Source of the DNA: a virus
Direction: 5' to 3' (one strand)
UHGV virus genome: UHGV-1377581
Length of the DNA: 48,047 nucleotides
A program made the translations under genes and the position numbers. The notes under the pieces are model-generated. The model saw nothing but the letters and a program-made list of their open reading frames with translations, was not told where the DNA came from and did no database searches. Positions 5,202 through 45,610 of the stretch are shown here, piece by piece (the stretch's first letter is position 1; each line of letters opens with the position of its first letter).

Positions 5202-5274
5202 GGCGTTTGCTCCTGATTGGTTGATGGTGTAATAATACCCGCACGCGGCGGGTATTGTTTAGCAATTAGTGCTG
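5202..5274 (-). promoter_or_regulatory. intergenic cassette E1 (palindrome cAGCAC-TAAT-TGCTA, hairpin ACCCGC/GCGGGT, TATTAT, leader)
   Basis: Matches the repeated tripartite element. 22-bp spacer. Confidence 0.5.
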
Positions 5275-5502
5275 TTTTGCGAAATACTCCGCGCCTTCAT
5301 GCGATTTAAATTCAATCAATTCTCGTTCAAGAATTTCTGGCCAGTCAGCGACCGGGGTTCCGTTGTCCATGAACTCCATGTAGGTTCCGTCGATGGTGTC
5401 AGCAAAGGCTAACTTTTCCTCATCCGTCCCAATGAAGCCGTATTTGTCCAGCAATTCAACCACGATCCGAAGATACTCGGTGAAAGATTCTATCTGTTCC
5501 AT
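5266..5502 (-). CDS. hypothetical highly acidic protein
   Basis: 78 aa, about 25% Asp+Glu. Confidence 0.55.
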   Translation of the reverse strand: MEQIESFTEYLRIVVELLDKYGFIGTDEEKLAFADTIDGTYMEFMDNGTPVADWPEILERELIEFKSHEGAEYFAKQH

Positions 5503-6527: not shown

Positions 6528-6597
6528 TCCGTTCTTCGTTTCGATGGGGTAATAATACCCGGCTTTCGCCGGGCGGTTTTAACAAAAAGTGCTATTT
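6528..6597 (-). promoter_or_regulatory. intergenic cassette E2 (TAGCAC-TTTT-TGTTA, hairpin CCGGC-GAAA-GCCGG, TATTAT, CCCCATCGAAAC)
   Basis: Repeated element. The TAG is the stop of the VRR-NUC gene. Confidence 0.55.
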
Positions 6598-6999
6598 GAT
6601 GGCATCGCAGAAAGCGATCTTGAATTGCTCGAAGCCATAGGCCACGGCGGCGAATCCGCCGCGACGGCGAACGGCAGCAAGGAATTCCCTTTGCTCCTTG
6701 CTCACTGGTGACGCCTGCGCCTTACCCTGGCGCTTTAGCTCGATGGCCGCGAACGGGTATTTGCCGCCGAACCCAATCAGGATCAGAATGTCGCTAACGC
6801 CCTTCAGCAACCCCATTTGATGATCGATAACCGCGCTCGCCTTGTGCTTGCTGCCTTCATTGACTGTATGCCAGAACAGATAATCAGGGTATTCGTGCCG
6901 CAGCCACGAAACGCTATTCATCTGATCGATTTTCTCAAGCGGGCAAGCCTTTACAGGCCCGCCGTAGTATTCGAGATAATCACCTTTATCAGTAATCAC
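6592..6999 (-). CDS. VRR-NUC domain nuclease
   Basis: PD-(D/E)XK-type VRR-NUC signature region (ILILIGFGGKYPFAAIELKRQGK). GTG start overlapping the helicase stop. Confidence 0.55.
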   Translation of the reverse strand: MITDKGDYLEYYGGPVKACPLEKIDQMNSVSWLRHEYPDYLFWHTVNEGSKHKASAVIDHQMGLLKGVSDILILIGFGGKYPFAAIELKRQGKAQASPVSKEQREFLAAVRRRGGFAAVAYGFEQFKIAFCDAIK

Positions 7000-9032
7000 T
7001 ATTCGTCTCCAAAATCTTTGCGTGAAATAATATCTTCCTTCTTACCGTTAACGCGATGCGTTACGCGCTTCGGCGCTCGGAAGTAATGCGCATTCTCAAG
7101 GATTTTTCGCGCATTTTTCATCCCGCCCAACTTGCCGCGCATTACCGCGTCGTCAACGTGCTGGAAGACTGCCTTTTGCCGCCACAACTTGCCGCAAATC
7201 TTATTCTCTGATTCCGGGAAGAACTTTTCCCTTGCGGTGAATCGCTCGCCGTCATGGTTCAGTAGCACGTAATTGAAGATGATCCCGGACTGATTGCGAG
7301 TCAAGCCGATATCGAACCCGACAACATCATACCAGTCATTCTGCGTGTAGTGCTTCCCGGTGAGATTGTCGTTGGGATCTTTAAGCTGCACCCCGCAGCA
7401 TCTGCACTGGCGAGCAACAATATCGTTTTCAGCGTAACACCCCTTTACCTTAATCTTCCCTGTTCGCGGGTCTTTCTGGTCTTCGCAGCGCTGCGAGATC
7501 CAGAAGTATTCGCAACGATTGCCGTTGCTGTCTTTGTGGATGCATCGGCGGGCGTACTCGCTATTTTCTCCCTTGCATACCGGGCAAATTTTCGGGCCGT
7601 TCTTGCTGCTCTTGCGTCTTTGGTATTGTGCCTGCTCAAGAATCGGATCGAAATATAGCTGGCCCAAATCGTCCATAGTCCCGGCGAAGTCCCAAACTAA
7701 ATGGTCTTCCTTAACCCACGAGTAAGGCGGCTGTTTTTGCCAGTCTTTTAACAGTCGCATACCGCGCCCCAAAAGCTGAATAAGCAACGTAAGCGATCCG
7801 ATCTTGCGCAATATCACCGAAAAATCCCAAAACGGAACGTTAACGCCAGTGGTTAGGGCCATCACCTGGAAGATGTATTTAATCTCCCCGCGATTCGCCT
7901 TATCCAAAATTTCGCCGCGTTTCTTTGAGTTGGTCTTCTCGGTGATGATCGCGTATGTTGCGTCCGGCGGTAAGTAGCTTGCCGCTTCCTTGCAATGCCG
8001 CTGGCCAGCGCAAGTAATAAGAACGCCGTTTCGGGTTTTCGCACGCTCAACGACCTTTTGCATAATCAGCTTCGTCATTTCGCCGGATTCATGGATTTTC
8101 TTTTCCATCTTGCGCAAGTCTTCAGCGCTAAAATCCTGCGTACCGTCCTGACTGGAACCGTGGAACTCTGACAGGTCATACCCTAACCCATCCGCCTCGG
8201 TGTCACCGAAGATGGTGGGAACTACCGAACCGAACTCGACAAGATAGTTTGTGTTAATGTCGGTGATCTGCTCGCGCCAGAATCCCGGCTGCGTCTTGTC
8301 TTCCTGCAAGATGGGAACCACCCCGCGAAACTCCGACCCCGTATAACCGACGATGCGAAGTTCTCGCCCTGTCTTCTCAAGGCACCTCCGCATTAACTCA
8401 CAAATGACGATGGTGTACTGCGTGCGACCGCCGCCGAATTCTACGTCGTCGAATTTTTCGTCGTATGGGTGGTCGGCATCGACCAGTTCCCCGTTCACGC
8501 GATACGGCTTATCCTTCGGTCTGCTCATGTACTCGAACGATTCATTGTTGGCGATCGCTTCCGCCAGATCTTGCCAGTCAACCTGGTGGCATTCGTCAAT
8601 TGCCAGAACTGAAGGCACGTAGTCGCCAAGCATTTTAAACAGGCCATTAACCACCGTCCCTTCAGATCCGACGACGATCGGGAAGTATGCCGCCTTTGTG
8701 CCTAACCCGGCGCAATAAACGGAGTTGGGAACATCGAGGTTACTGATCTCCTCGGAATCCTGCTTCACGATCTCGGCCTGGCGAGCAAGAACCATCATGG
8801 GTAAGTTCATTGCCTTGCACTGCGCCGCGAGCATGGCGATCATGATGGTTTTCCCGGCGGAAACCGAAGCCTTAATGTAAAAAGGATGTTCATATTTTGC
8901 GATCCGCTTCGCGGTCTCAATATACGCAACCGCCTGATACGGGTAAGGAACGATATTTCCTACGGTGAACCGCTTTTGTATTAGCGGGATCTTGTCTGCG
9001 TAGGCTTCAATTTGTTGTTCAATTGTGAGCAT
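6999..9032 (-). CDS. SNF2/DEAD-like ATP-dependent DNA helicase
   Basis: Walker A (SAGKT), DExH (AIDECH), helicase C-terminal motifs and a Cys4 cluster. Start placed at MLTIEQ (SD AGGA), because the longer ORF to 9101 would run through its own promoter element. Confidence 0.75.
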   Translation of the reverse strand: MLTIEQQIEAYADKIPLIQKRFTVGNIVPYPYQAVAYIETAKRIAKYEHPFYIKASVSAGKTIMIAMLAAQCKAMNLPMMVLARQAEIVKQDSEEISNLDVPNSVYCAGLGTKAAYFPIVVGSEGTVVNGLFKMLGDYVPSVLAIDECHQVDWQDLAEAIANNESFEYMSRPKDKPYRVNGELVDADHPYDEKFDDVEFGGGRTQYTIVICELMRRCLEKTGRELRIVGYTGSEFRGVVPILQEDKTQPGFWREQITDINTNYLVEFGSVVPTIFGDTEADGLGYDLSEFHGSSQDGTQDFSAEDLRKMEKKIHESGEMTKLIMQKVVERAKTRNGVLITCAGQRHCKEAASYLPPDATYAIITEKTNSKKRGEILDKANRGEIKYIFQVMALTTGVNVPFWDFSVILRKIGSLTLLIQLLGRGMRLLKDWQKQPPYSWVKEDHLVWDFAGTMDDLGQLYFDPILEQAQYQRRKSSKNGPKICPVCKGENSEYARRCIHKDSNGNRCEYFWISQRCEDQKDPRTGKIKVKGCYAENDIVARQCRCCGVQLKDPNDNLTGKHYTQNDWYDVVGFDIGLTRNQSGIIFNYVLLNHDGERFTAREKFFPESENKICGKLWRQKAVFQHVDDAVMRGKLGGMKNARKILENAHYFRAPKRVTHRVNGKKEDIISRKDFGDE

Positions 9033-9112
9033 GGGCAATCCTAATTTGTCATTCGCATAGTTGCGTGTATAATACAGTGAACATTTTATCATGTTTAACA
9101 AAAAATGCTATG
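9033..9112 (-). promoter_or_regulatory. intergenic cassette E3 (TAGCATTTTTTGTTAAAC, hairpin AACAT/ATGTT, TATTAT) driving the helicase
   Basis: Same architecture. 21-bp spacer. Confidence 0.45.
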
Positions 9113-9123
9113 AGGGTTAAATT

Positions 9124-9525
9124 ATGGAACAAATGGCAAAGGTTGATAAGCGAACCTTGAACGGCAATAACGGAACATCGCGCGGGAAAGATAAGAAGAA
9201 ACGTAAGCGACCGACTGGTTACTACGTGCTGAAGGATGAGGTTCGCGCCGGGTTGACTGCGCGGATGGAGCTGGTTATTGATGCCTTCGGTGGCATCGCT
9301 GGAACGGCAAAAGAGTTGGGAGTTAGTATCCAGGTTGTTCAGCAGTGGCGTAAGCGCGGCATGATCTCAGCCGATGGCGCTTATCTCGTACATAAGAGCT
9401 ACCGCCGGAACAATTGCAAAGGTTTCCGCGCCTCATTCTGCCGACCAGATTTAAGATTTGACAGCAACGGCAAGCCAGTGACGCGCCGATGCGACCGCCG
9501 GGAAATGCTACGCGTAGTCCGATAG
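9124..9525 (+). CDS. Cro/YdaS-like HTH DNA-binding protein
   Basis: HTH segment TAKELGVSIQVVQQWRKRGMIS. Divergent from the helicase. Confidence 0.5.
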   Translation: MEQMAKVDKRTLNGNNGTSRGKDKKKRKRPTGYYVLKDEVRAGLTARMELVIDAFGGIAGTAKELGVSIQVVQQWRKRGMISADGAYLVHKSYRRNNCKGFRASFCRPDLRFDSNGKPVTRRCDRREMLRVVR

Positions 9526-9600
9526 CACAATTTGTCTAAACACTAAACGCCTGCCGGGTTATCATTCTCGTGTAGGCGTTTTTTATTTGGAGGTAACGAC
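9523..9600 (+). promoter_or_regulatory. cassette E4 overlapping a terminator (TAGCACAATTTGTCTA, 22-bp spacer, TATCAT inside hairpin AACGCCT...AGGCGTT plus T6)
   Basis: The stop TAG of the Cro-like gene is in the palindrome. Hairpin plus U-tract immediately before the primase RBS GGAGGT. Confidence 0.55.
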
Positions 9601-10560
9601 GTGGATTTTTACGATGAAAAAGAGGTTTTGCCGTACATGGCTGGTATGTGGCGCGAAGCGTTGCAGAACATTTGCGGCATCCACTCTCGATACTTCAACG
9701 GCAAGCACCAGGACTGCCCGAACTGCGGAGGCAAAGACCGATTCCGCTGGACTGACAAGTTAGAAACGCGCGGCGACGGCGGCGCATACTGTGGCGGCTG
9801 CGGTGCCGATAAGGGGATCGGATGGTTAATGAAGTTGAGCGGCGAGCCGTATAGCGAGTGCATCAACATTCTTGGGCGATACTTGGGCAAAGTTCCGCAA
9901 GAATACGTGGTCAAGAGAAACAAGCAGGTAGCTCGTGATAACGGGTATGACTACGGAAAGATGGCAGATCATGAAAGAGTGCTGGCAGTTTTAAACAGAA
10001 CGGAGGCCGTCGATAGCACGCCTGTAACGCTCTATGAGGGCATTGAAAATGAGCATATCAAATCATATCAGGTTGGCGTAAAAACTAACGAGAACGGCAG
10101 ACAGGAGCTAATTCACGCGCTACCGATGCAACTCGTGCATGAAGATGGGCTGGATGATGAGTATTGCAATATCCTGTTCATTGATGAAGAAGGTAGGGAG
10201 AAGATGCTAGCTGGAGATCTGACCTTCGGATCGGTGATAGTGACCAATCAGAGCGACGACGGTAACGGGCCGATTTACCTTGCTCGATCCTGGATTGAGG
10301 CGATGCACTTCAATATTGCCAGTTCGTTCAAGTGCGACGTTTGGGCCTGCATCATACCTTCAAACGTCGAGATCGTGGCGTACAGGTATAAAGGCAGGGG
10401 CGGAGAAGGTAAGCGAGAAATGCGGGTAGTTTGCCGTCGTGGAGATCGGGATATGCTGGCGGCTGCCGACGATAGGGATCTCAAGGTTATCGTTCCGAAC
10501 GGCGACAACTTCAAGCTCGGCTTTGAGCGTAAGTTATACAAGGCATCATCTCTTCTCTGA
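9601..10560 (+). CDS. DNA primase-like protein with N-terminal zinc-binding motif
   Basis: CPNCGG...CGGCG zinc ribbon. Position next to the helicase. GTG start with a strong SD. Confidence 0.5.
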   Translation: MDFYDEKEVLPYMAGMWREALQNICGIHSRYFNGKHQDCPNCGGKDRFRWTDKLETRGDGGAYCGGCGADKGIGWLMKLSGEPYSECINILGRYLGKVPQEYVVKRNKQVARDNGYDYGKMADHERVLAVLNRTEAVDSTPVTLYEGIENEHIKSYQVGVKTNENGRQELIHALPMQLVHEDGLDDEYCNILFIDEEGREKMLAGDLTFGSVIVTNQSDDGNGPIYLARSWIEAMHFNIASSFKCDVWACIIPSNVEIVAYRYKGRGGEGKREMRVVCRRGDRDMLAAADDRDLKVIVPNGDNFKLGFERKLYKASSLL

Positions 10561-10580
10561 TTAAATATTGACCAGAATTT

Positions 10581-10616
10581 AGGTAAGATTGAGAAAATCA
10601 GTCTTACCTTTTTTTA
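10581..10616 (+). terminator. rho-independent terminator after the primase (GGTAAGATTGA...TCAGTCTTACC plus T7)
   Basis: Hairpin plus T-tract. The stem is itself built from the GTAAGA motif. Confidence 0.55.
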
Positions 10617-10617
10617 T

Positions 10618-10980
10618 GCCTGAAATTCAGTGGCTTGCAACTGGTCGAACCACTTTAGGTAAGATTTAGTAAGATGAATCTTACGTAAATTTCGCGCAAA
10701 ATTTAACCAATTAACCGCAATATATAGATAGTAAGTATATGATAAATAACAATATTATTATTATCACTCTGTCTGTATCTATCAATCTTGGTAAGATTTC
10801 TCCGGGGTACGTGTCTTTTTTCGCTGGATTTCGCGCAAGATTTTTCATGGATATTTACCTATAGGGATCTTACTATCTTACCGATTTGCATTAACTCGAT
10901 GAAATATATAGGAAAAATCACGTAAGATGCATCTTACTAAATCTTACGTAAATTTCGCTCATTTTTTGACCAGTTGGCGA
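10618..10980. promoter_or_regulatory. regulatory region with perfect palindromes GTAAGATGAATCTTAC (about 10669) and GTAAGATGCATCTTAC (about 10922), a direct repeat ATCTTACGTAAATTTCGC, and an AT-rich module (10719-10808)
   Basis: Multiple operator-like inverted repeats. The AT-rich 90-bp module recurs inverted at 42331-42420. Confidence 0.55.
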
Positions 10981-11056
10981 ATAGCACTTTTTGCCTTGCA
11001 CCTGGAATCGTGATGCGTATACTTAACTCAACGAAACCACAAACGGAGTGATACCA
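10981..11056 (+). promoter_or_regulatory. cassette E5 (ATAGCACTTTTTGCCTTG, TATACT, leader CTCAACGAAACC) driving the recombination operon
   Basis: Box1/box2 match without an upstream gene. Confidence 0.5.
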
Positions 11057-12103
11057 ATGGCTGAAGCAATTTTTAAGGCATACACCAACGCGGAATTATC
11101 CAACGATGATTACCACGATCCTAACTCCTGGTGCGCCAGATACGTTAGCGGCTCAAGCCTCGGCGAGATTTACGCAACCTCCCCGGCCCACTGGAAATAC
11201 AAGGAGCGAGAAGAAACAGCCGCGCTTTCATTCGGCACTTGCTCCCATACCTGCATGCTTGAGACGTCCAAATTTAATGGCGAGTACCTGCGAGCGACCG
11301 CGCCGGGCGACGTTAAGGATCTGATTACTTCGAAGTCGGCATTGTCTGCGAAATTGAAAGCGTGTGGCCTGATTGGGACGTCCAACAAGGACTACCCCGA
11401 ATTGCTGGAAATGGCATACCGCGCCGGGATTGATGTTAACGTGTGGTGGGCGATCGAACTCTGCGACGAAAGCGCCGCCATCAACTCAGGCCGGAAGCTG
11501 GTCAAGGATTCTGATTTCGATGCGGTCGTGCAAATGCGAAACGTGATGCTGGCTAACCCACGGCACGCGGCGTGCATTGAATCGGATACAGCGCAACGCG
11601 AGTTGTCAATCTTCGGCGAAATTTTCGGCGTCCCGGTAAAGGTTCGGCTCGATCATGTTGACGTCGTGTCAGATCCCGAACTCATCAAAGAGTGGGGGTT
11701 TAACCCGGATGAAGTTTTCGAAGTGGTGGTGATTACCGACTACAAAACTACTCAGACCTCTAAACCGGATGACTTTGGGCGACTGGCGTTCAACCTGGGA
11801 TACTATCTCAAAATGGCATTGCAGCGCGATCTGTTCGTTAAGACGTACAACGAAAGACGCCCGGTGGTTGTCCGCCTGCTGACTCAGGAGAAAAAATCAC
11901 CGTTCGCGCCTCTCGCGTTCACGTTAACGGATCAGCAGATTGAGATCGGGCGGAAGCAGTATCAAAGCGTGATTCACCAGTACGCCGAATGCGTCAAGCA
12001 TGACGTTTGGCCGTCATACGAATCGAACGCAGCGGAAGTGAAGTTGCCCACGCCGCAATTCGTGAAATACATGTTCCCGGAAGTATACGGCACAAATAGC
12101 TAA
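11057..12103 (+). CDS. RecE/lambda-exo-like PD-(D/E)XK exonuclease
   Basis: D...ITDYKT nuclease core. First gene of the exo-ERF-SSB module. ATG with SD GGAGTG (the ORF track starts at GTG 11048). Confidence 0.55.
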   Translation: MAEAIFKAYTNAELSNDDYHDPNSWCARYVSGSSLGEIYATSPAHWKYKEREETAALSFGTCSHTCMLETSKFNGEYLRATAPGDVKDLITSKSALSAKLKACGLIGTSNKDYPELLEMAYRAGIDVNVWWAIELCDESAAINSGRKLVKDSDFDAVVQMRNVMLANPRHAACIESDTAQRELSIFGEIFGVPVKVRLDHVDVVSDPELIKEWGFNPDEVFEVVVITDYKTTQTSKPDDFGRLAFNLGYYLKMALQRDLFVKTYNERRPVVVRLLTQEKKSPFAPLAFTLTDQQIEIGRKQYQSVIHQYAECVKHDVWPSYESNAAEVKLPTPQFVKYMFPEVYGTNS

Positions 12104-12162
12104 ACACTACGGCGCACTTGTGATATAGTGCGCTCCACCAATCAGGAAAAGGAAAGTTTGTC

Positions 12163-12819
12163 ATGCGTACATCTGAAAGTTTCAAAGAGATCGCCGTTGC
12201 GTTAATCAAAGCGAAGTCTGGCTTCGTCGCCGCGAAGAAAAGCGGGAAGAATAGCCACCTGGGTAACACCTACGCCAATCTCGGCGATATCCTGGACGCC
12301 ATCGGGCCATCGCTGGAAAAGAACAAAATTATGGTTATTCAATCAATGATGGATACCAGCACAGACAAGGTTATGCACCTTGAAACGATGTTCCTGCACG
12401 AATCTGGCGAGTGGATGGCGTTTCAGTTCAACATGCCGATCAGCAAAACCGTTGAGCAAGCGTATGGATCGACCACCTCATACGCTCGCCGTTATGCGTT
12501 AGCCGCCGCGCTGGGCATCAAGCAGGCCGACGATGACGCAGAGATCGCGAAGATGAAGCCGCAAGACTTCAAAAAACGCATTGATGCGTGCGAAGACCTC
12601 GAATCTCTCCGCGAGATTTACAAGCTGGCTAAACAGACGTTGACGCCTGCGGAATGGAAGGTGACGGAAGACGATATCACGAAGCGCCAGGCGCAACTAA
12701 AAGTGACGCCAGCGAACGGATTTAACCCCGGCAAGCCACAAGATGTTGCGAAACGTGAGCCGGAACAGGTAGAATCAAAGCCTGAACCTGAATCACAAGA
12801 TATCTCATCTTTCAACTAA
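12163..12819 (+). CDS. ERF-family single-strand annealing protein
   Basis: ERF-like N-terminal domain, acidic C-terminal tail. Positioned between exonuclease and SSB. Confidence 0.55.
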   Translation: MRTSESFKEIAVALIKAKSGFVAAKKSGKNSHLGNTYANLGDILDAIGPSLEKNKIMVIQSMMDTSTDKVMHLETMFLHESGEWMAFQFNMPISKTVEQAYGSTTSYARRYALAAALGIKQADDDAEIAKMKPQDFKKRIDACEDLESLREIYKLAKQTLTPAEWKVTEDDITKRQAQLKVTPANGFNPGKPQDVAKREPEQVESKPEPESQDISSFN

Positions 12820-12855
12820 TTTAACCGGGCGGGAAACCGCCCCATAGGAAAAACA

Positions 12856-13320
12856 ATGCATGTTGTAACAGGGGTAATCCGAAAAGCGCCTTACGTAAAA
12901 GAGGGCAGCAACAATAACGGGCCGTGGAAGATGTATGCGGTAGACCTGTCGGAGCGAATGAAGATCCGCAATCGCGACGGCCAGGACGAAACTGTATACA
13001 CCAACTATCGCGCCGTCTTCTTCGCGAAGGAAAGCATGATTGCGTGGTACGATGAAGCGTTGCAGGTCGACAAGGTTATTAGCGTAACCTGCCGGACACT
13101 TCAGATCGTAAACCGCGAGCACAACGGCGCAACTTACAGCCACAATGAAATGATTATGCCGCAACTGGAATTCAGCCAGCGCGAACCAGCGCAGGGCGGC
13201 GGTAATCAGCAGGGTGGGTGGGGCCAGCCTCAGCAACCTAAGCCGCAACAACAACAACCGAAGCCGCAAAGCGGTGGTGGTAATCATGGCATGGATTTCG
13301 ATGATGATATCCCGTTCTGA
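12856..13320 (+). CDS. ssb: single-stranded DNA-binding protein
   Basis: OB-fold, Gly/Gln/Pro-rich linker and the canonical acidic tail DFDDDIPF. Confidence 0.85.
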   Translation: MHVVTGVIRKAPYVKEGSNNNGPWKMYAVDLSERMKIRNRDGQDETVYTNYRAVFFAKESMIAWYDEALQVDKVISVTCRTLQIVNREHNGATYSHNEMIMPQLEFSQREPAQGGGNQQGGWGQPQQPKPQQQQPKPQSGGGNHGMDFDDDIPF

Positions 13321-28912: not shown

Positions 28913-29854
28913 TTACACGCCAGAAAGAATGGCGATAGTCAGCGGACGATACACGATGAGGCCAGTGCATTTGGAGGTGCAAGGCACTTTGAAATGCAGG
29001 TCTTTCGGCTGCATCGGCAGCATGTTGAAGCGTTCCGGGATCTCGATCGACATATTCATCGGATCTTTTTCGTATGCCAGCACGCCTTTAGTATCTGCGC
29101 CGTCGATATCTTCCAGTTCCGCAATCGCGGTGATGGTGACATTCGGGTAGTTCTCTTTGAACCACGCGAGGTAACTTTCCGTAACGTCCGGCATTTTCTG
29201 CGTCAGCAGGCGGCGCTTGGACGGCGGGATCACGATGTTGGTAACATGGTGACGACCCAGCGTTACATCTTCGATCGTCTCGATCAGATCCTGCAACTCG
29301 CTGAATGCGATTTCCGGCGTAGTCCAGCTTGCGGAGGTCAGACGGTTAATGTTCGGCTGATCGAACACGCTAACGATGTTATGCGGCGCGGAACCTTTGA
29401 ACACCAGATCGTTAACCAAGGTTTCATGGCCTTCGCGTGCAAGAGACGCTTTGCGGTCGCTCAGGCTGGAACCCAGCGCCTGACCTGCTTTGATTTCGTC
29501 GATGGAGATAAACCACGCGTTACCCAGGCGGAACACTTTGCCAGTTTTCTCGGACGCCATCGCTTCAACGGTCGGCAGGTCGTCGGTATAATCCGCGATG
29601 ATTTTCGCAGAGGTTACGCCGTCAAACTCCAGCCATTCAAAGTTTTTCGTTACCGGACTCAGTTCGGTAGTAACCGGGAAAAGCTCCAGCACACCAGTTT
29701 GCGGGTAAGCCTGCTCGTACTGGCGATTTAAGAGTTGGGTAAGCTGATTAACAGTCCAGATGCCGTGCGCGTCGAGTTTGTTAGCGTCGATGCCCATACC
29801 CTGCATTGCAACCTTGATTGCATTCTGCTCGAATGCATCTAATTTCATAGTCAT
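28913..29854 (-). CDS. major capsid protein (HK97 fold)
   Basis: 313 aa, T1-type MCP features. Strongest terminator downstream. Confidence 0.8.
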   Translation of the reverse strand: MTMKLDAFEQNAIKVAMQGMGIDANKLDAHGIWTVNQLTQLLNRQYEQAYPQTGVLELFPVTTELSPVTKNFEWLEFDGVTSAKIIADYTDDLPTVEAMASEKTGKVFRLGNAWFISIDEIKAGQALGSSLSDRKASLAREGHETLVNDLVFKGSAPHNIVSVFDQPNINRLTSASWTTPEIAFSELQDLIETIEDVTLGRHHVTNIVIPPSKRRLLTQKMPDVTESYLAWFKENYPNVTITAIAELEDIDGADTKGVLAYEKDPMNMSIEIPERFNMLPMQPKDLHFKVPCTSKCTGLIVYRPLTIAILSGV

Positions 29855-29930
29855 TTGAAACTCCTGTTTGTGTGTTTTGACTTAACGAGATGAAGAATAG
29901 CACGAATTGCTAAACGGTCAAAGGTTTTTT

Positions 29931-29962
29931 TAACGTATGAAAAAGGGGCCGAAGCCCCTATT
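29931..29962. terminator. bidirectional terminator (GGGGCCGAAGCCCC flanked by A5/T5)
   Basis: Hairpin with flanking runs. Confidence 0.55.
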
Positions 29963-35919: not shown

Positions 35920-35967
35920 TGTGAATCCTCCTTCTGTGTTGAGTTGCGAGTATACCAGATTGCAGGC

Positions 35968-35994
35968 ACAAAAAAACCCGCCGAAGCGGGTTAT
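35968..35994 (-). terminator. terminator (AACCCGCTTCGGCGGGTT plus T7)
   Basis: Hairpin plus T-tract on the minus strand. Confidence 0.55.
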
Positions 35995-37951: not shown

Positions 37952-38033
37952 TTGTTTAGCTCCTGATTGGTTCGCTTCAATAAGGCCACTATATCAAATG
38001 GCCTTGCGGAAGTTTTAGCAAAAAGTGCTATTT
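37952..38033 (-). promoter_or_regulatory. cassette E7 (TAGCACTTTTTGCTAAAAC, hairpin AAGGCCA/TGGCCTT, TATAGT)
   Basis: Repeated element. 22-bp spacer. TAG is the stop of the upstream gene. Confidence 0.55.
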
Positions 38034-38780: not shown

Positions 38781-38854
38781 GATTTTTCCTCTTTGGTTGG
38801 TGTGGGGATAGTATGCACCATCCCAGGACGGCGGTTTTAGCAATTCGTGCTATT
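38781..38854 (-). promoter_or_regulatory. cassette E8 (TAGCACGAATTGCTAAAAC, 24-bp spacer, TACTAT, leader CCCCACACCAAC)
   Basis: Near-identical twin of E15. Confidence 0.55.
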
Positions 38855-39059
38855 CAATCACCTTGATTACGCGCTCCGGGCGATTGGGTGCGCCGGATTT
38901 GTGGAGCCAGTAGCGGGCCTGCGTCAACTGGCCGAAGTGCTCGACCGTCACCCACCAGAAGAATGCAACACGCCGCTGTGCTGCATACCACTCCACCGGA
39001 CGCCCGAACGCATCAAGCGTCGCAATGCGCACGATCCTGAATTTTCGGTTAGAAGCCAT
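38850..39059 (-). CDS. hypothetical protein
   Basis: ATG MASNRKF overlapping the stop of the upstream gene. Confidence 0.45.
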   Translation of the reverse strand: MASNRKFRIVRIATLDAFGRPVEWYAAQRRVAFFWWVTVEHFGQLTQARYWLHKSGAPNRPERVIKVIE

Positions 39060-39763: not shown

Positions 39764-39855
39764 TCTTCTGTCTCCTTGCATAATCGGTTTGTTAATATAC
39801 TTCTTGATAATTACGCCCGATCCTCTGACCGGGCGTTTAGCAATGCGTGCTATTT
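39764..39855 (-). promoter_or_regulatory. cassette E9 (TAGCACGCATTGCTAAAC, hairpin CGCCCG/CGGGCG)
   Basis: Repeated element with a divergent box2. Confidence 0.5.
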
Positions 39856-40170
39856 CAGTCCGCGAAGGTCAATCTTCGATTTTGCCCAATCAGGGAAGCG
39901 AGCCATTGACCCGATTTGGTCTAGCCTGTTTTTGGCCTTCCCTACGTCGCACCATGCTTCACCCTGGCCCTCAAAAATGCGAACCTCTTCGGCTGTAGAC
40001 TCATAGGCCCAAATTGCACCGTCGGCATCAATGGCGATCGTGTTGGCCCAAATCGGCACGTCAATCGACCGCGCGTCGTCGGGGTCGGGAATGTTAAGCT
40101 GGAAGGCAACAACCCTCCTCTTCTTGAGGTTTGCCACCACTTGTTTTTTTGACTTAATTTCGTGAATCAT
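39850..40170 (-). CDS. hypothetical protein
   Basis: ATG with SD AAGGAGAA. Confidence 0.5.
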   Translation of the reverse strand: MIHEIKSKKQVVANLKKRRVVAFQLNIPDPDDARSIDVPIWANTIAIDADGAIWAYESTAEEVRIFEGQGEAWCDVGKAKNRLDQIGSMARFPDWAKSKIDLRGLK

Positions 40171-40393: not shown

Positions 40394-40465
40394 GTTTTTG
40401 CTCCTCTGTTTCGATGGGGTAATAATAACGCATTGCCCCGATCGAGTTTTAGCAAAAAGTGCTAC
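40394..40465 (-). promoter_or_regulatory. cassette E10 (TAGCACTTTTTGCTAAAAC, 22-bp spacer, TATTAT, CCCCATCGAAAC)
   Basis: Repeated element. Confidence 0.55.
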
Positions 40466-41059: not shown

Positions 41060-41135
41060 CTTCATCACCTCAGTTCGTTGTCGATGGGTAAATAATACCG
41101 GATCTCGCCATCGGCGTTTTAGCAAAAAGTGCTAT
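41060..41135 (-). promoter_or_regulatory. cassette E11 (TAGCACTTTTTGCTAAAAC, hairpin GCCGATGGC, TATTAT, CCCATCGACAAC)
   Basis: Repeated element. 22-bp spacer. Confidence 0.55.
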
Positions 41136-41483: not shown

Positions 41484-41561
41484 TTCGGTTTCCTCGGTTC
41501 GTTGTCGATGAAGAGATAATACCCGATCTCCCTGACCGGGTTTTAACAAAAAGTGCTATTT
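41484..41561 (-). promoter_or_regulatory. cassette E12 (TAGCACTTTTTGTTAAAAC, hairpin CCCGG/CGGG, TATTAT, leader CATCGACAAC)
   Basis: Repeated element. 22-bp spacer. Confidence 0.55.
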
Positions 41562-42140
41562 CGTGGTGGTTGCCTCCTGGCTGATATCGCTGGCGTTCAA
41601 TCCAAGATCGATAGCCGCGAACAAGGTCGCCTTGTAAATCCCGGTCAGGGCATTCCCGGCGAAGTCTACGGCAAGAGCGGCCACTAAACCCTTAATCCGC
41701 TCCCGCTCGGAGATAGCGCCCTGCCGCCTGTACGCCTCGGCCTCCAGGTGTGAGGCGGTCGTTGCGTCGAACTCGGTAAAGACGGAGATTAACCCCGCCC
41801 CCAGGCTCACCCGCAACACTTCTCCCGGCTCCAGGAGTTTCAGCAACGGCCTGCGGAAATGGTTGTCGACCGGATTAACGCCGAACTTCTCCACGAACTC
41901 CTCCGCCGTCATCTGGATACGCCGCCCGCCATCCAGGAACATGCGTCGGATCTCGGAAGAGCGGTTGCCAGTGAATGTGCCTTCAGTCTTCGCTGCTTCC
42001 TGGCTCCGTCCGGCTGGCCTGGTGGCTTCACCAAACGTGATGGATTGCAGCCATTCATGGTAAGCGGCTTGCTTATCTGCGTCGTACCGCATCCACTCGG
42101 ACACGTCGACCTCTTCGAACTCATAGCCTTTATATTGCAT
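41556..42140 (-). CDS. hypothetical protein, first gene of the leftward early operon
   Basis: ORF. Possible start MQYKGYE with SD GGGGGAAA. Confidence 0.5.
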   Translation of the reverse strand: MQYKGYEFEEVDVSEWMRYDADKQAAYHEWLQSITFGEATRPAGRSQEAAKTEGTFTGNRSSEIRRMFLDGGRRIQMTAEEFVEKFGVNPVDNHFRRPLLKLLEPGEVLRVSLGAGLISVFTEFDATTASHLEAEAYRRQGAISERERIKGLVAALAVDFAGNALTGIYKATLFAAIDLGLNASDISQEATTTK

Positions 42141-42155: not shown

Positions 42156-42718
42156 ACTTACGGCGTTTGGTAATGTTTCGGAAGGTGATAATACAGGCCG
42201 CAGGCCGCGCCGTCAAAGGGTTTCGGCGTGTTTGGTAAGATTTGCTGTCATCCACTATATATCCCTATATACATTTTTTCGCGGCGGAACATCTAAAAAT
42301 TATGGCTTGCGCAAGGAGAATCCATAACCTCCCCGGAGAAATCTTACCAAACATATATAAAGATAAAGAGTAATAATAATAATATTATTATTTATCATAT
42401 ACTTACTATCTATATATGGGCTTATATTGGTCACTTTTTGTGCAACTTTCTGGTAAGATTTTTCCTCCCACACATTCCCACACGCCCTAAATGTTGGGGA
42501 AACACACGCACCGTTTTGGCAGGATTTGAACGGCGAATTATGTGCATAGTGCATACATTTATGCAATTCGTTGCAAATCATGAAACACTCCAAAAATCGT
42601 TGCACAAAATGAAACAATCAAAAGCAATCATGATTCGTCAAAACTAATCACCAGGGAATCAGGTGCAATCACCATCTATTCCGCTATTCCGAATCGGTGG
42701 AATAATCAGCAATCGCAG
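42156..42718. promoter_or_regulatory. divergent regulatory region: GGTAAGAT motifs (about 42232, 42341, 42451), inverted AT-rich module (42331-42420), TGCATA/ATGAAACA/TTGCAA repeat cluster (42500-42660)
   Basis: Direct reading. 650-bp non-coding stretch between divergent operons. Confidence 0.55.
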
Positions 42719-42803
42719 GAATAGCATTTTTTGTTAAAACCCACCCGATCGGCTTTGCTATGATGACTTCAACGAAACGAATTGAGCCAAAGGGGCTAAA
42801 GCT
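42719..42803 (+). promoter_or_regulatory. cassette E13 (ATAGCATTTTTTGTTAAAAC, hairpin CCGATCGG, TATGAT, leader CAACGAAAC)
   Basis: 22-bp spacer. Drives the rightward operon. Confidence 0.55.
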
Positions 42804-43085
42804 ATGAAACTTCAACGCGAATCAATCAACCTGGGCAGCGAGTATAACGGCAAGTGGAACTTCGTTATCATGGATAGCGACGCCGACAAGATCGAAGCGG
42901 TTGAGGAAGCGTTATGCGAAATGGCCACTGGCTTCTCTGTCGGCGGCGAAGATAAAACCTGGGGCGACTACTGCGACCAATGCCCTTGCTATGACGATGG
43001 TTATGGCTCCGGCTTCTGGATTCCGGTCGAAGATGTTCCGGCTTTCAAAGAGGCGTACAAGGCAGCGAAGAAAGCAGTGAAATAA
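42804..43085 (+). CDS. hypothetical acidic protein with CxxCxC cluster
   Basis: ORF with SD AAAGGGG. Acidic composition. Confidence 0.55.
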   Translation: MKLQRESINLGSEYNGKWNFVIMDSDADKIEAVEEALCEMATGFSVGGEDKTWGDYCDQCPCYDDGYGSGFWIPVEDVPAFKEAYKAAKKAVK

Positions 43086-43157
43086 GCACGAATTGCTAAA
43101 CGCCGGGCCGCGAGGCCTGGTATAGTTAACCCATCGAAACCAGTCAGGAGATTAACC
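43083..43157 (+). promoter_or_regulatory. cassette E14 (TAAGCACGAATTGCTAAAC, hairpin GGCC-GCGA-GGCC, TATAGT, CCCATCGAAACC)
   Basis: 22-bp spacer. The TAA stop is inside the palindrome. Confidence 0.55.
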
Positions 43158-43587: not shown

Positions 43588-43965
43588 ATGCGAACAGTTA
43601 CCATTTCGAACAGCTTTTCCTACATCATCGGATCGCCGGAAGAGCGTATCAAGGCCATGCGCGACAAGGCGACCAATGACGTTACCGATGCCTTCAGTGC
43701 TGCGGCTAAAGCTGCGATCACGCATTACTACGGTCGTGGCCCGGAAGAGTTCAGCGCGGAAAGTGCGCCTTTCCTGGTGGTCAAAAAGGAAGGTGGCCAT
43801 GTATGGCAAATCAACGACAAGCAGACTGGCGAGTTTATTTTCGGATCGGTTCCGTGCCGGGTAGGAAGCAACGATGTTACCATCCAGGAACTCGGCGATC
43901 ATGAACCTCGCGTTCAGCGCACGATCTATATTAGCCAGGATTACACGACCTGCGTTCCGGCATAG
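43588..43965 (+). CDS. hypothetical protein
   Basis: ORF with RBS. Confidence 0.55.
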   Translation: MRTVTISNSFSYIIGSPEERIKAMRDKATNDVTDAFSAAAKAAITHYYGRGPEEFSAESAPFLVVKKEGGHVWQINDKQTGEFIFGSVPCRVGSNDVTIQELGDHEPRVQRTIYISQDYTTCVPA

Positions 43966-44037
43966 CACGTTTTGCTAAAACAACATGGCGGGATAGTGGC
44001 ATACTATCCCCACACCAACAAGCGAAGGAGCTACACA
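43963..44037 (+). promoter_or_regulatory. cassette E15 (TAGCACGTTTTGCTAAAAC, hairpin GGGATAGT/ACTATCCC enclosing TACTAT, leader CCCCACACCAAC)
   Basis: Twin of E8. 24-bp spacer. Confidence 0.55.
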
Positions 44038-44845: not shown

Positions 44846-45538
44846 ATGAAAAAGCGCGTTGTGTGGTGCATGTTTGACGGTTCCGGGATTATGGGCCTGC
44901 CGTGGGCAATTCGCGGTTGCGATGTATATTGCTTTAACGCAGATTCCGGCGACCACGGCGAGTACAAAATCCGCATGGAGCATGCAAAAATCCAGTATGT
45001 CAACATCTGGATTGACAAAGATTTCGACGTGAAGCGCACGATCCTGGGCATCCCGGATCCTGACATTATTTTCGCTTTCCCTTCCTGCACGCTGTTAGCG
45101 CATAGCGGGGTGAAGCACGCCCGGCAGACTCAGGATGTTTTATCAGCCGCCGATGATGCGAAGATGATCGAGCAATTGGGCGACCAATATAATTGCCCCT
45201 GGATGGTAGAAAACCCGGTTGGAAAATTGTCGACGCTTTGGCGCAAGCCGGATTTTTATTTCCACCCTCGCGACTTCGGCGGGTATGTTGCTCCGCATGA
45301 GGAAGTTTGGCACCCAAAAATGCCGCACTGCGACAATTACACGAAGAAAACGTGCATCTGGCACGGTAACGGATTCGTGGAGCCGAAACGGTTATTACCG
45401 CCGGAAGGTGTGGAGGGCGTAGATTTCTTTTGGGCGTGGAAATTCCTGGGCGGCAAGTCTGAAAGAACAAAGATGCTTCGCTCTATCACTCCGCGCGGAT
45501 TCGCTCGCGCCGTGTTCCAGGCGAATTTTAATGAATAG
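44846..45538 (+). CDS. DNA cytosine-5 methyltransferase-like protein (short, non-canonical)
   Basis: Motif I-like FDGSG, motif IV-like FPSC, motif VI-like MVENPVG. Start MKKRVVW with SD GAGGTGA. Confidence 0.5.
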   Translation: MKKRVVWCMFDGSGIMGLPWAIRGCDVYCFNADSGDHGEYKIRMEHAKIQYVNIWIDKDFDVKRTILGIPDPDIIFAFPSCTLLAHSGVKHARQTQDVLSAADDAKMIEQLGDQYNCPWMVENPVGKLSTLWRKPDFYFHPRDFGGYVAPHEEVWHPKMPHCDNYTKKTCIWHGNGFVEPKRLLPPEGVEGVDFFWAWKFLGGKSERTKMLRSITPRGFARAVFQANFNE

Positions 45539-45610
45539 CACAAATTGCTAAACGTACCCGCTTAATTGCGGGTATAGTTATTCCATCGAAACGCAACGGA
45601 GAAAACAAGA
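45536..45610 (+). promoter_or_regulatory. cassette E16 (TAGCACAAATTGCTAAAC, hairpin ACCCGC/GCGGGT, TATAGT, TTCCATCGAAAC)
   Basis: 22-bp spacer. Confidence 0.55.

Follow-up and report, generated by a model that had tools for sequence, protein, structure and literature searches.

A terminator hairpin with a putative nested mar/sox/rob-type promoter at the regulator-primase junction of a T1-like Klebsiella phage

Introduction

How can the primase gene of a T1-like phage be transcribed when a terminator-like hairpin stands directly before it? The question is raised by positions 9522-9600 of UHGV virus genome UHGV-1377581 (48,047 nucleotides (nt); the whole of this stretch is called the window below), where the gene of a Cro-fold regulator is followed by that of a primase. 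The window comes from a T1-like siphophage of Klebsiella, a Webervirus (family Drexlerviridae), and its 3-kb stretch 8500-11500 has 353 matching phage records with a top identity of 95-97%. A first-pass annotation had described the junction as an overlapping terminator and promoter, with TTGTCT as the -35 and TATCAT as the -10 element, and had called it the clearest prototype of a recurring cassette. From the comparison presented here we incline, with slightly better than even confidence, to the reading that the junction is two elements in one, a terminator and, nested within it, a promoter activated by a MarA-family protein at an upstream box. The elements concerned are the following.

9046-9073, plus strand: near-consensus sigma-70 promoter of the regulator gene, TTGTCA-16-TATAAT, 11 of 12 consensus positions
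9124-9525, plus strand: upstream gene, 133-amino-acid (aa) Cro-fold regulator, stop codon TAG at 9523-9525
9522-9541, plus strand: 20-base-pair (bp) box ATAGCACAATTTGTCTAAAC, a copy of the T1-like 21-nt direct repeat and similar to the mar/sox/rob box (marbox); overlaps the regulator stop codon
9545-9581, plus strand: terminator hairpin, 5' arm 9545-9558, loop 9559-9566, 3' arm 9567-9581 with T9571 bulged
9560-9565, plus strand: -10-like hexamer TATCAT in the hairpin loop, its A2 and T6 invariant in 27 homologous sequences
9572, plus strand: predicted transcription start, a G preceded by T9571, within the 3' arm
9579-9588, plus strand: T-tract TTTTTTATTT (T6AT3), its three leading T paired with A9545-9547; the family alignment has an invariant TTT
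9589-9594, plus strand: Shine-Dalgarno sequence GGAGGT of the primase gene
9601-10560, plus strand: primase gene, GTG start (Pfam Zn_Ribbon_Prim, E = 4.9e-10; PHROG 510, E = 1.6e-104)
10583-10611, plus strand: terminator-like hairpin with T7 after the primase gene, which would close a one-gene transcription unit

The motifs that the first-pass annotation had listed (TAG at 9523-9525, TTGTCT at 9532-9537, a 22-nt gap, TATCAT at 9560-9565, T6AT3 at 9579-9588, GGAGGT at 9589-9594 and GTG at 9601) were all found where it had put them.

A conserved terminator hairpin with unrelated stems

When the junction was folded as RNA, 9545-9558 paired with 9567-9581 in 14 pairs, two of them G-U, with T9571 bulged and an 8-nt loop, TTATCATT. 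This bears out the placing of TATCAT in a hairpin loop, while the 7-bp stem first described for it gives way to the 14 pairs and one bulge of the fold. The hairpin begins 20 nt past the regulator stop codon and, because of the bulge, was missed by a simple terminator scan. The 82-nt stretch 9523-9604 folds at -26.4 kcal/mol (z = -3.5), a value equalled by 1 of 200 shuffled sequences, and the hairpin by itself reaches about -20 kcal/mol (z = -5.6), equalled by none of 300 shuffles.

For comparison, homologous regulator-primase junctions of several genera were drawn from GenBank phages and IMG/VR contigs, the lowest primase identity being ~51%; the set comprises 27 non-identical junctions and one variant with an inserted HNH gene. 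In every one of these a T-tract follows a hairpin of -15 to -25 kcal/mol, and the stem sequences are unrelated. With the register taken from the base of each sequence's own fold, at least 14 distinct stems are seen over the six basal pairs, each position having 2-6 pair types; 84 of 84 basal stem cells are paired, and shuffling of the 3' arms lowers this to 40 of 84. RNAalifold returned no pairs on a MAFFT alignment of the 27 junctions, because that alignment is out of structural register. No Rfam covariance model matched the window at gathering score, nor did any match 9400-9700 at E <= 10. The junction possesses the features of an intrinsic terminator, namely a stable GC-rich stem-loop, U6AU3 just 3' of the stem and compensatory pairing. 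Together with the terminators annotated at this place in phages T1 and TLS, the compensatory stem changes suggest that upstream transcripts would terminate here, as the first reading had it.

In the variant (IMGVR_UViG_2974545369, 880-1500) an open reading frame (ORF) for a 173-aa HNH-type endonuclease is inserted between regulator and primase. The junction before it keeps the box and has a different stem (AGCCGATGAT/ATCGTCGGCT) with TTATTATAAT in the loop, the same spacing and T6AT5.

The loop hexamer as a probable -10 element

In all homologous junctions the hairpin encloses a TAnnnT-type hexamer in or at its loop. The variants observed are TATCAT, TATGAT, TATTAT, TAACAT, TAGATT, TAAAGT, TAGAAT, TAAACT, CATTAT, CATAAT and TAATAT, and in many relatives the hexamer is preceded by TGn. 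Apart from the upstream box and the T-tract, the 27-junction alignment has only two invariant columns, A2 and T6 of the hexamer, whose other positions vary; A2 and T6 are the most important positions of a -10 element. The distance is likewise constrained, as the hexamer begins 24-25 nt after G13 of the box in all junctions and 25 nt after it in the window, which leaves an 18-bp gap between box and hexamer.

A -35 element was not found to match. The consensus TTGACA at 17 +/- 1 bp is absent from the junction, where TTGTCT stands at 22 bp, and a sigma-70 scan gave only a weak match, TAAACA-17-TATCAT (9 of 12 positions). TAAACA, at 17 bp, agrees with the -35 consensus at 4 of 6 positions and is not kept even within Webervirus, where TAACTA also occurs; other cassettes have TAAAAC or similar in the -35 position, which is not a -35 element. 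The assignment of TTGTCT as a -35 hexamer with a 22-bp spacer was set aside, this motif being positions 11-16 of the repeated 20-bp marbox-like box. Cruciform extrusion that would place TTGCTA at -35 distance was ruled out, the spacer being far too short.

The context of a start site is present downstream of the hexamer, with T9571 at -1 and G9572 at +1. In the cassettes that share the box, position 7 after the hexamer is A in 12 of 14 cases in the window and 15 of 18 in T1, and a pyrimidine stands at position 6 in 14 of 14 and 16 of 18 respectively. The invariant A2 and T6, the fixed box distance and the pyrimidine/purine step at -1/+1 point to initiation about 7 nt past TATCAT, which agrees with the start that had been proposed. 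As the T-tract runs directly into the ribosome-binding site, there is no space for another primase promoter.

The box belongs to a repeated cassette

A 21-nt direct repeat, aaATAGCACnnnTTGnTAAAA, has been described for phage TLS in a paper that notes comparable repeats in T1, Rtp and Rogue1 and offers a stoperator, an enhancer or an UP-like element as possible functions without choosing among them; the re-annotation of TLS holds only three sigma-70 promoters (PMC11447400). These repeats run along the direction of transcription, are intergenic and lie ~76 nt before a start codon. The copy at 9522 fits the repeat consensus, cgATAGCACAATTTGTCTAAAC, with one additional base before TAAA, and is found on the plus strand 79 nt ahead of the GTG at 9601.

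The window holds ~17 good copies of the repeat against ~4 pattern matches expected. In 15 of the 17 a hexamer of the form [TC]AnnnT starts 24-25 nt after the G of TTG (null frequency 5.5%, binomial P ~2e-17), and a hexamer is found at that distance in 18 of the 23 boxes of T1. A significant GC-rich hairpin (z <= -2.4) accompanies 12 of the 17 cassettes in the window, either lying within the gap and abutting the hexamer or enclosing or overlapping the hexamer. A real T-run follows the hairpin at the 9522 copy only; there alone a full terminator has the -10 at the centre of its loop, and the box of this copy is among the poorer ones. The junction is in this respect the exception and not the clearest prototype of the cassette, since the usual hairpin is found within the 18-bp gap or overlapping the -10, with no T-run after it. 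What survives of the overlapping terminator-promoter first proposed is the idea of nesting, which the comparison of related sequences favours; its -35 assignment and its status as a prototype do not.

The repeat matches the mar/sox/rob box

The repeat fits the consensus of the Escherichia coli mar/sox/rob box, AYNGCACNNWNNRYYAAAYN (PMC3709825, PMC2064960). The window has 5 exact marbox matches and, with up to one mismatch allowed, 12 where 1.01 would be expected, and all 12 are copies of the repeat; in phage T1 there are 21 at one mismatch or fewer against 1.0 expected. The family-invariant box positions G4 C5 A6, G13 and A17 fall in RE1, R13 and RE2, which are specified marbox positions, while the variable repeat positions 8-10 correspond to the unspecified centre. 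At the orthologous site in other genera the box is a perfect marbox. The 9522 box stands in forward orientation 18 bp from the -10 and covers the -35 region, which is the geometry of a class II promoter. Class II mar/sox/rob promoters reportedly follow a rule of 18-19 bp, which is said to go back to work of Martin and colleagues from 1999. A sequence that we take to be the marbox of mar itself is present upstream of marR. To our knowledge a marbox reading of the T1-like repeat is unpublished.

Other binding sites were also considered. The TAGCA...TGCTA flanks fit the Lrp consensus yAGhAwATTwTdCTr at 13 of 15 positions, but the window has 63 matches at three mismatches or fewer against 58.6 expected, and the Lrp site was dropped in favour of the marbox because its consensus is too loose. 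By-eye comparison with sites of IHF, Fis, CRP and sigma-32 (CCCCAT in the leaders) gave no convincing fit.

As to the protein that might bind the box, a MarA-like AraC-family protein (gp49) was found in the phage collection only in Dibbivirus. The Dibbivirus AAM37, a Pantoea phage of this sister genus that served as outgroup, has three cassettes of box, hairpin and -10, and its 136-aa MarA homologue matches Pfam HTH_18 (E = 1.8e-14) and, by blastp, MarA (E = 3e-12 over 116 residues) as well as Rob's N-terminal domain (E = 3e-9). No MarA homologue was found in the window or in T1 (tblastn E > 0.7, profile E > 2), nor in any Drexlerviridae record of the phage collection. In AAM37 the regulator homologue (73 aa, 6889-7110) overlaps the primase start, leaving no intergenic element there; the cassettes lie at 8332, 11210 and 13167 and the MarA-like gene at 12759-13169.

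The adjacent regulator

The regulator encoded at 9124-9525 matches PHROG 2856 (E = 2e-75) and is a hallmark of the Drexlerviridae, present in 831 phage records. Its Pfam matches to P22_Cro and YdaS are under the curated cut-off and its best match among PDB sequences is weak (E = 0.01). The AlphaFold2 model (predicted local distance difference test score 87) had its best Foldseek matches among all-alpha Cro folds, namely 3bd1 (Xfaso1 Cro, target-normalised template modelling (TM) score 0.74) and N15 Cro (TM 0.70), and the model thereby has the all-alpha Cro fold with a helix-turn-helix (HTH) motif. The predicted recognition helix (residues 69-78) is variable across the regulator family while the box core is invariant, which makes the regulator the weaker candidate for binding the box; we infer that a host protein of the MarA family is the more favoured binder. 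Conservation within the regulator is highest in a block at the N-terminus that is basic and disordered, DKRT.NGNNGT.RG.D..RKR, and in a C-terminal motif (RASFCRPDLRFD.NGK); the recognition helix does not rank with these.

Upstream of the regulator gene, its promoter (9046-9073, plus strand) and a box-type promoter of the helicase gene (9069-9111, minus strand) have -10 elements that overlap on opposite strands. In the regulator transcript the helicase box occupies about +14 to +31, and TLS has the same layout (P57 with DR11). The shared -10 region of these divergent promoters looks like a mutually exclusive switch.

Proposed mechanism

We propose that the regulator transcript starting from the promoter at 9046-9073 would end at the Rho-independent terminator formed by 9545-9581 and U6AU3. 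The promoter nested in it would be of the type that may drive most early and replication genes of T1-like phages, made up of a 20-bp asymmetric box in forward orientation, an 18-bp gap without sequence requirement and a -10 hexamer. As there is no usable -35 element, it would be a MarA-family activator on the box that brings in RNA polymerase, in the manner of class II promoters like micF. The activator in the Drexlerviridae would be the host's Rob, MarA or SoxS, or RamA in Klebsiella, and in Dibbivirus possibly the phage's own MarA homologue. Initiation would take place at G9572 within the 3' arm, and RNA beginning there would lack the 5' arm, so that no hairpin could form and the T-tract would be read through into the primase gene. 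The escape from termination that the first-pass annotation had envisaged for such a transcript is sound in its logic. The primase unit would in turn end at the hairpin at 10583-10611. Of all this, the anatomy of the sequence, its conservation and covariation, the agreement of box and marbox and the micF-like geometry are observed; termination, the start site and the protein on the box are predicted.

In the other cassettes the 18-bp gap would code for a smaller hairpin with the T-rich -10 as a poor U-tract, making them leaky insulators. At the regulator-primase junction the stem appears to have been extended around the -10 and furnished with a true U-tract, which would give tight termination with the spacing of box and -10 unchanged. 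Wrapping the stem around the -10 would reconcile the fixed box distance with the long stem and unbroken U-tract that strong termination calls for. More tentatively, and with somewhat less than even confidence, we suggest that T1-like phages run most of their early and replication transcription from ~17-23 class II marbox promoters, hijacking Rob, MarA and SoxS (or RamA in Klebsiella) in place of a factor of their own, and that the gap hairpins make these promoters terminators or insulators of the upstream unit as well, with the regulator-primase junction as the extreme case.

Several points weigh against the reading as terminator and nested promoter. We know of no classical T1-resistant mutants that map to rob, marA or soxS; the redundancy of Rob, MarA and SoxS could mask the effect of such a mutation. 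An 8-nt loop with a bulge is at the unfavourable end for intrinsic terminators. The hexamer at the junction, TATCAT, is preceded by GGT and not by TGn, and the predicted transcript would carry a U6 run at +8 to +13, which could hamper promoter escape. The 9522 box has two mismatches to AYNGCACNNWNNRYYAAAY, with RE2 displaced by 1 nt. The class II spacing was measured on one promoter only, that of micF, the -10 of fumC being ambiguous with a gap of 15-19 bp. A literature search on T1-like phages (Drexlerviridae, Webervirus) found no mapped transcript 5' or 3' ends. The marbox consensus is known as a degenerate one that has thousands of sites in E. coli (PMC2064960).

Alternative explanations

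The simplest alternative would be a plain attenuator, in which a leaky terminator lowers expression of the primase relative to the regulator and the primase is expressed by read-through with no internal promoter. The strong terminator features suit it well, as do the imperfect box and the absence of TGn at the 9522 copy, and in T1 and TLS the annotators marked the terminator as the only regulatory signal of the hairpin. An attenuator would however leave unexplained why A2 and T6 of the hexamer are invariant over at least 14 unrelated stems, why the box keeps its spacing of 24-25 nt and why the same module of box and hexamer stands before 15 other genes, and we consider it unlikely. RNA-level control, with the RNA of the box as a boxB/nut-like hairpin that loads an antiterminator, for instance through the basic N-terminus of the regulator, and so lets polymerase pass the hairpins, appears highly improbable. 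The box can indeed be folded as a 5-bp stem with a 5-nt loop in many window copies, a hairpin follows almost every box and the disordered basic block of the regulator is conserved, but the box stem shows no covariation and shrinks to 3 bp in other genera, its conserved bases are not pairing partners, and neither the -10 hexamer nor the start-site signature would be accounted for.

A different possibility is that the box is an operator of the adjacent Cro-fold regulator, which would either activate all box promoters in class II fashion or repress as a roadblock or 'stoperator', with the junction serving as an early-to-middle switch. The Cro fold, the expression of the regulator from the best sigma-70 promoter of the region and the switch-like arrangement seen also in TLS, with a box at +14 to +31 of its transcript and a -10 region in common with the divergent helicase promoter, would all be natural for such an operator, and the regulator family co-occurs with the boxes in all Drexlerviridae and in Dibbivirus. 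A dyad, TAGCA-N5-TGCTA, centred near -42, is moreover found in many of the window copies. In other genera, however, it decays to AGC-N7-GCT while the asymmetric marbox positions stay, and the recognition helix (69-78) varies where the box core does not. The strict orientation of the box suits a monomeric binder with two HTH motifs better than a Cro dimer, and a stoperator would not predict a -10 at a fixed distance. We regard the operator as quite unlikely, and continue with the MarA-family-activated promoter.

Other cassettes and neighbouring observations

The remaining cassettes of the window are as follows.

9069-9111, minus strand: box (9111 to 9092) and -10 TATTAT (9074 to 9069), before the helicase gene
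10981-11023, plus strand: box and -10 TATACT, before the exonuclease gene
12087-12129, plus strand: box (exact marbox) and TGA TATAGT, before the Erf-like gene; a hairpin encloses the -10
5232-5275, minus strand: box (exact marbox), gap hairpin and TATTAT
6552-6595, minus strand: box, gap hairpin and TATTAT
37988-38031, minus strand: box and hairpin enclosing TGA TATAGT
38810-38853, minus strand: box and hairpin overlapping CATACT
39834-39853, minus strand: box (exact marbox) with a strong gap hairpin and no clean hexamer at 24-25 nt
40422-40465, minus strand: box, hairpin and TATTAT
41092-41135, minus strand: box and TATTAT
41516-41559, minus strand: box, gap hairpin and TATTAT
42721-42764, plus strand: box and TGC TATGAT
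43083-43126, plus strand: box, gap hairpin and TGG TATAGT
43962-44005, plus strand: box and hairpin overlapping TGG CATACT
45535-45578, plus strand: box (exact marbox), gap hairpin and TATAGT

The predicted 5' leaders after most cassette -10s (e.g. 6538-6551, 40408-40421 and 43127-43140) are alike among paralogous cassettes and T1. Their usual forms, (C)CCATCGAAAC and ACCAATCAGGAG, are missing from the 9522 copy; the shared leader suggests a common initial transcribed or translation-enhancing sequence.

A further box stands alone at 29897-29916 on the plus strand, in the structural-gene region, whose genes are read from the minus strand. This orphan, an exact marbox, covers the -10 of a sigma-70-like promoter on the minus strand, TTGACC-16-TATTCT (29921 to 29894), and adjoins a bidirectional terminator at 29944-29959, upstream of a 313-aa minus-strand ORF at 28913-29854.

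The window has 16 copies of GTAAGAT/ATCTTAC where ~4 would be expected, and 10 of them, in both orientations, are gathered in the 420-bp gap 10560-10980 downstream of the primase gene. Those in the gap flank a very AT-rich stretch at 10720-10775, and three more are found at 42235-42459. The combination of iterons and an AT-rich region makes 10560-10980 a candidate replication origin.

T1-like phages are classic laboratory phages and Webervirus members are common candidates for Klebsiella phage therapy. A class II marbox reading with built-in hairpins would explain the orientation rule of the repeat, its fixed distance from the start codon and the missing -35 elements. It also predicts that phage gene expression is linked to the activity of host MarA, SoxS, Rob or RamA, often raised in multidrug-resistant isolates, and if it is true phage development would be coupled to the mar/sox/rob/ram state of the host. 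The nested terminator-promoter would be a compact design with which to insulate one-gene transcription units.

Comparison with known systems

The closest counterparts of the junction are its orthologs. In phage T1 (NC_005833) a rho-independent terminator is annotated at 35930..35971, between gene 23 (regulator) and gene 24 (primase), and in TLS the orthologous terminator is T57, with direct repeat DR10 (PMC11447400, Table S1). Position, T-tract and the 21-nt repeat just upstream are the same, and the loop hexamer is TAACAT in T1 and TATCAT in TLS. The annotations differ from our reading in keeping terminator and repeat separate and in marking no -10, fixed spacing or marbox identity. Further annotated terminators of T1 (38973-39001, 39998-40024 and 41980-42007) are the gap hairpins of box cassettes, in which the -10 (TATAGTTA or TATTATTG, for example) was taken as the U-tract.

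Among bacterial promoters the model is micF of E. coli K-12, a known target of MarA, SoxS and Rob, in which a forward marbox, ACAGCACTGAATGTCAAAAC, similar to the window box ACAGCACTAATTGCTAAAC, is followed by an 18-bp gap to TAGAAT and then the annotated +1; orientation and gap are no different in the phage cassettes. These differ from class II mar/sox/rob promoters in that a virulent phage carries 17-23 such boxes with GC-rich inverted repeats in the gap, in that binding is putative, and in the two mismatches of the 9522 copy. A compact terminator-promoter junction also exists in E. coli, where the fumA terminator (GCCGCCC-TTCG-GGGCGGT with T8) is followed 2 nt on by the exact fumC marbox, before the next gene. 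The elements at fumA-fumC lie side by side, whereas the phage promoter would be interleaved with its hairpin, either by having the -10 in the loop or by having the hairpin in the gap.

Stoperators of mycobacteriophage L5 type are repressor sites, asymmetric and repeated, that follow the direction of transcription; the boxes obey this orientation rule, but they are coupled to a -10 at a fixed distance, for which a roadblock would have no need. A lambda N/nut-type site would call for a conserved paired boxB, and none was found among the boxes, whose stem is 3 bp in other genera with no covariation. The middle promoters of phage T4, made up of a MotA box and a -10, likewise have a phage box in place of the -35, and there an activator recruits the sigma-70 holoenzyme. 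T4 is unlike the phages described here in using factors of its own, MotA and AsiA, and a box centred at -30; in the Drexlerviridae the site is of a host-activator type and no phage factor was identified.

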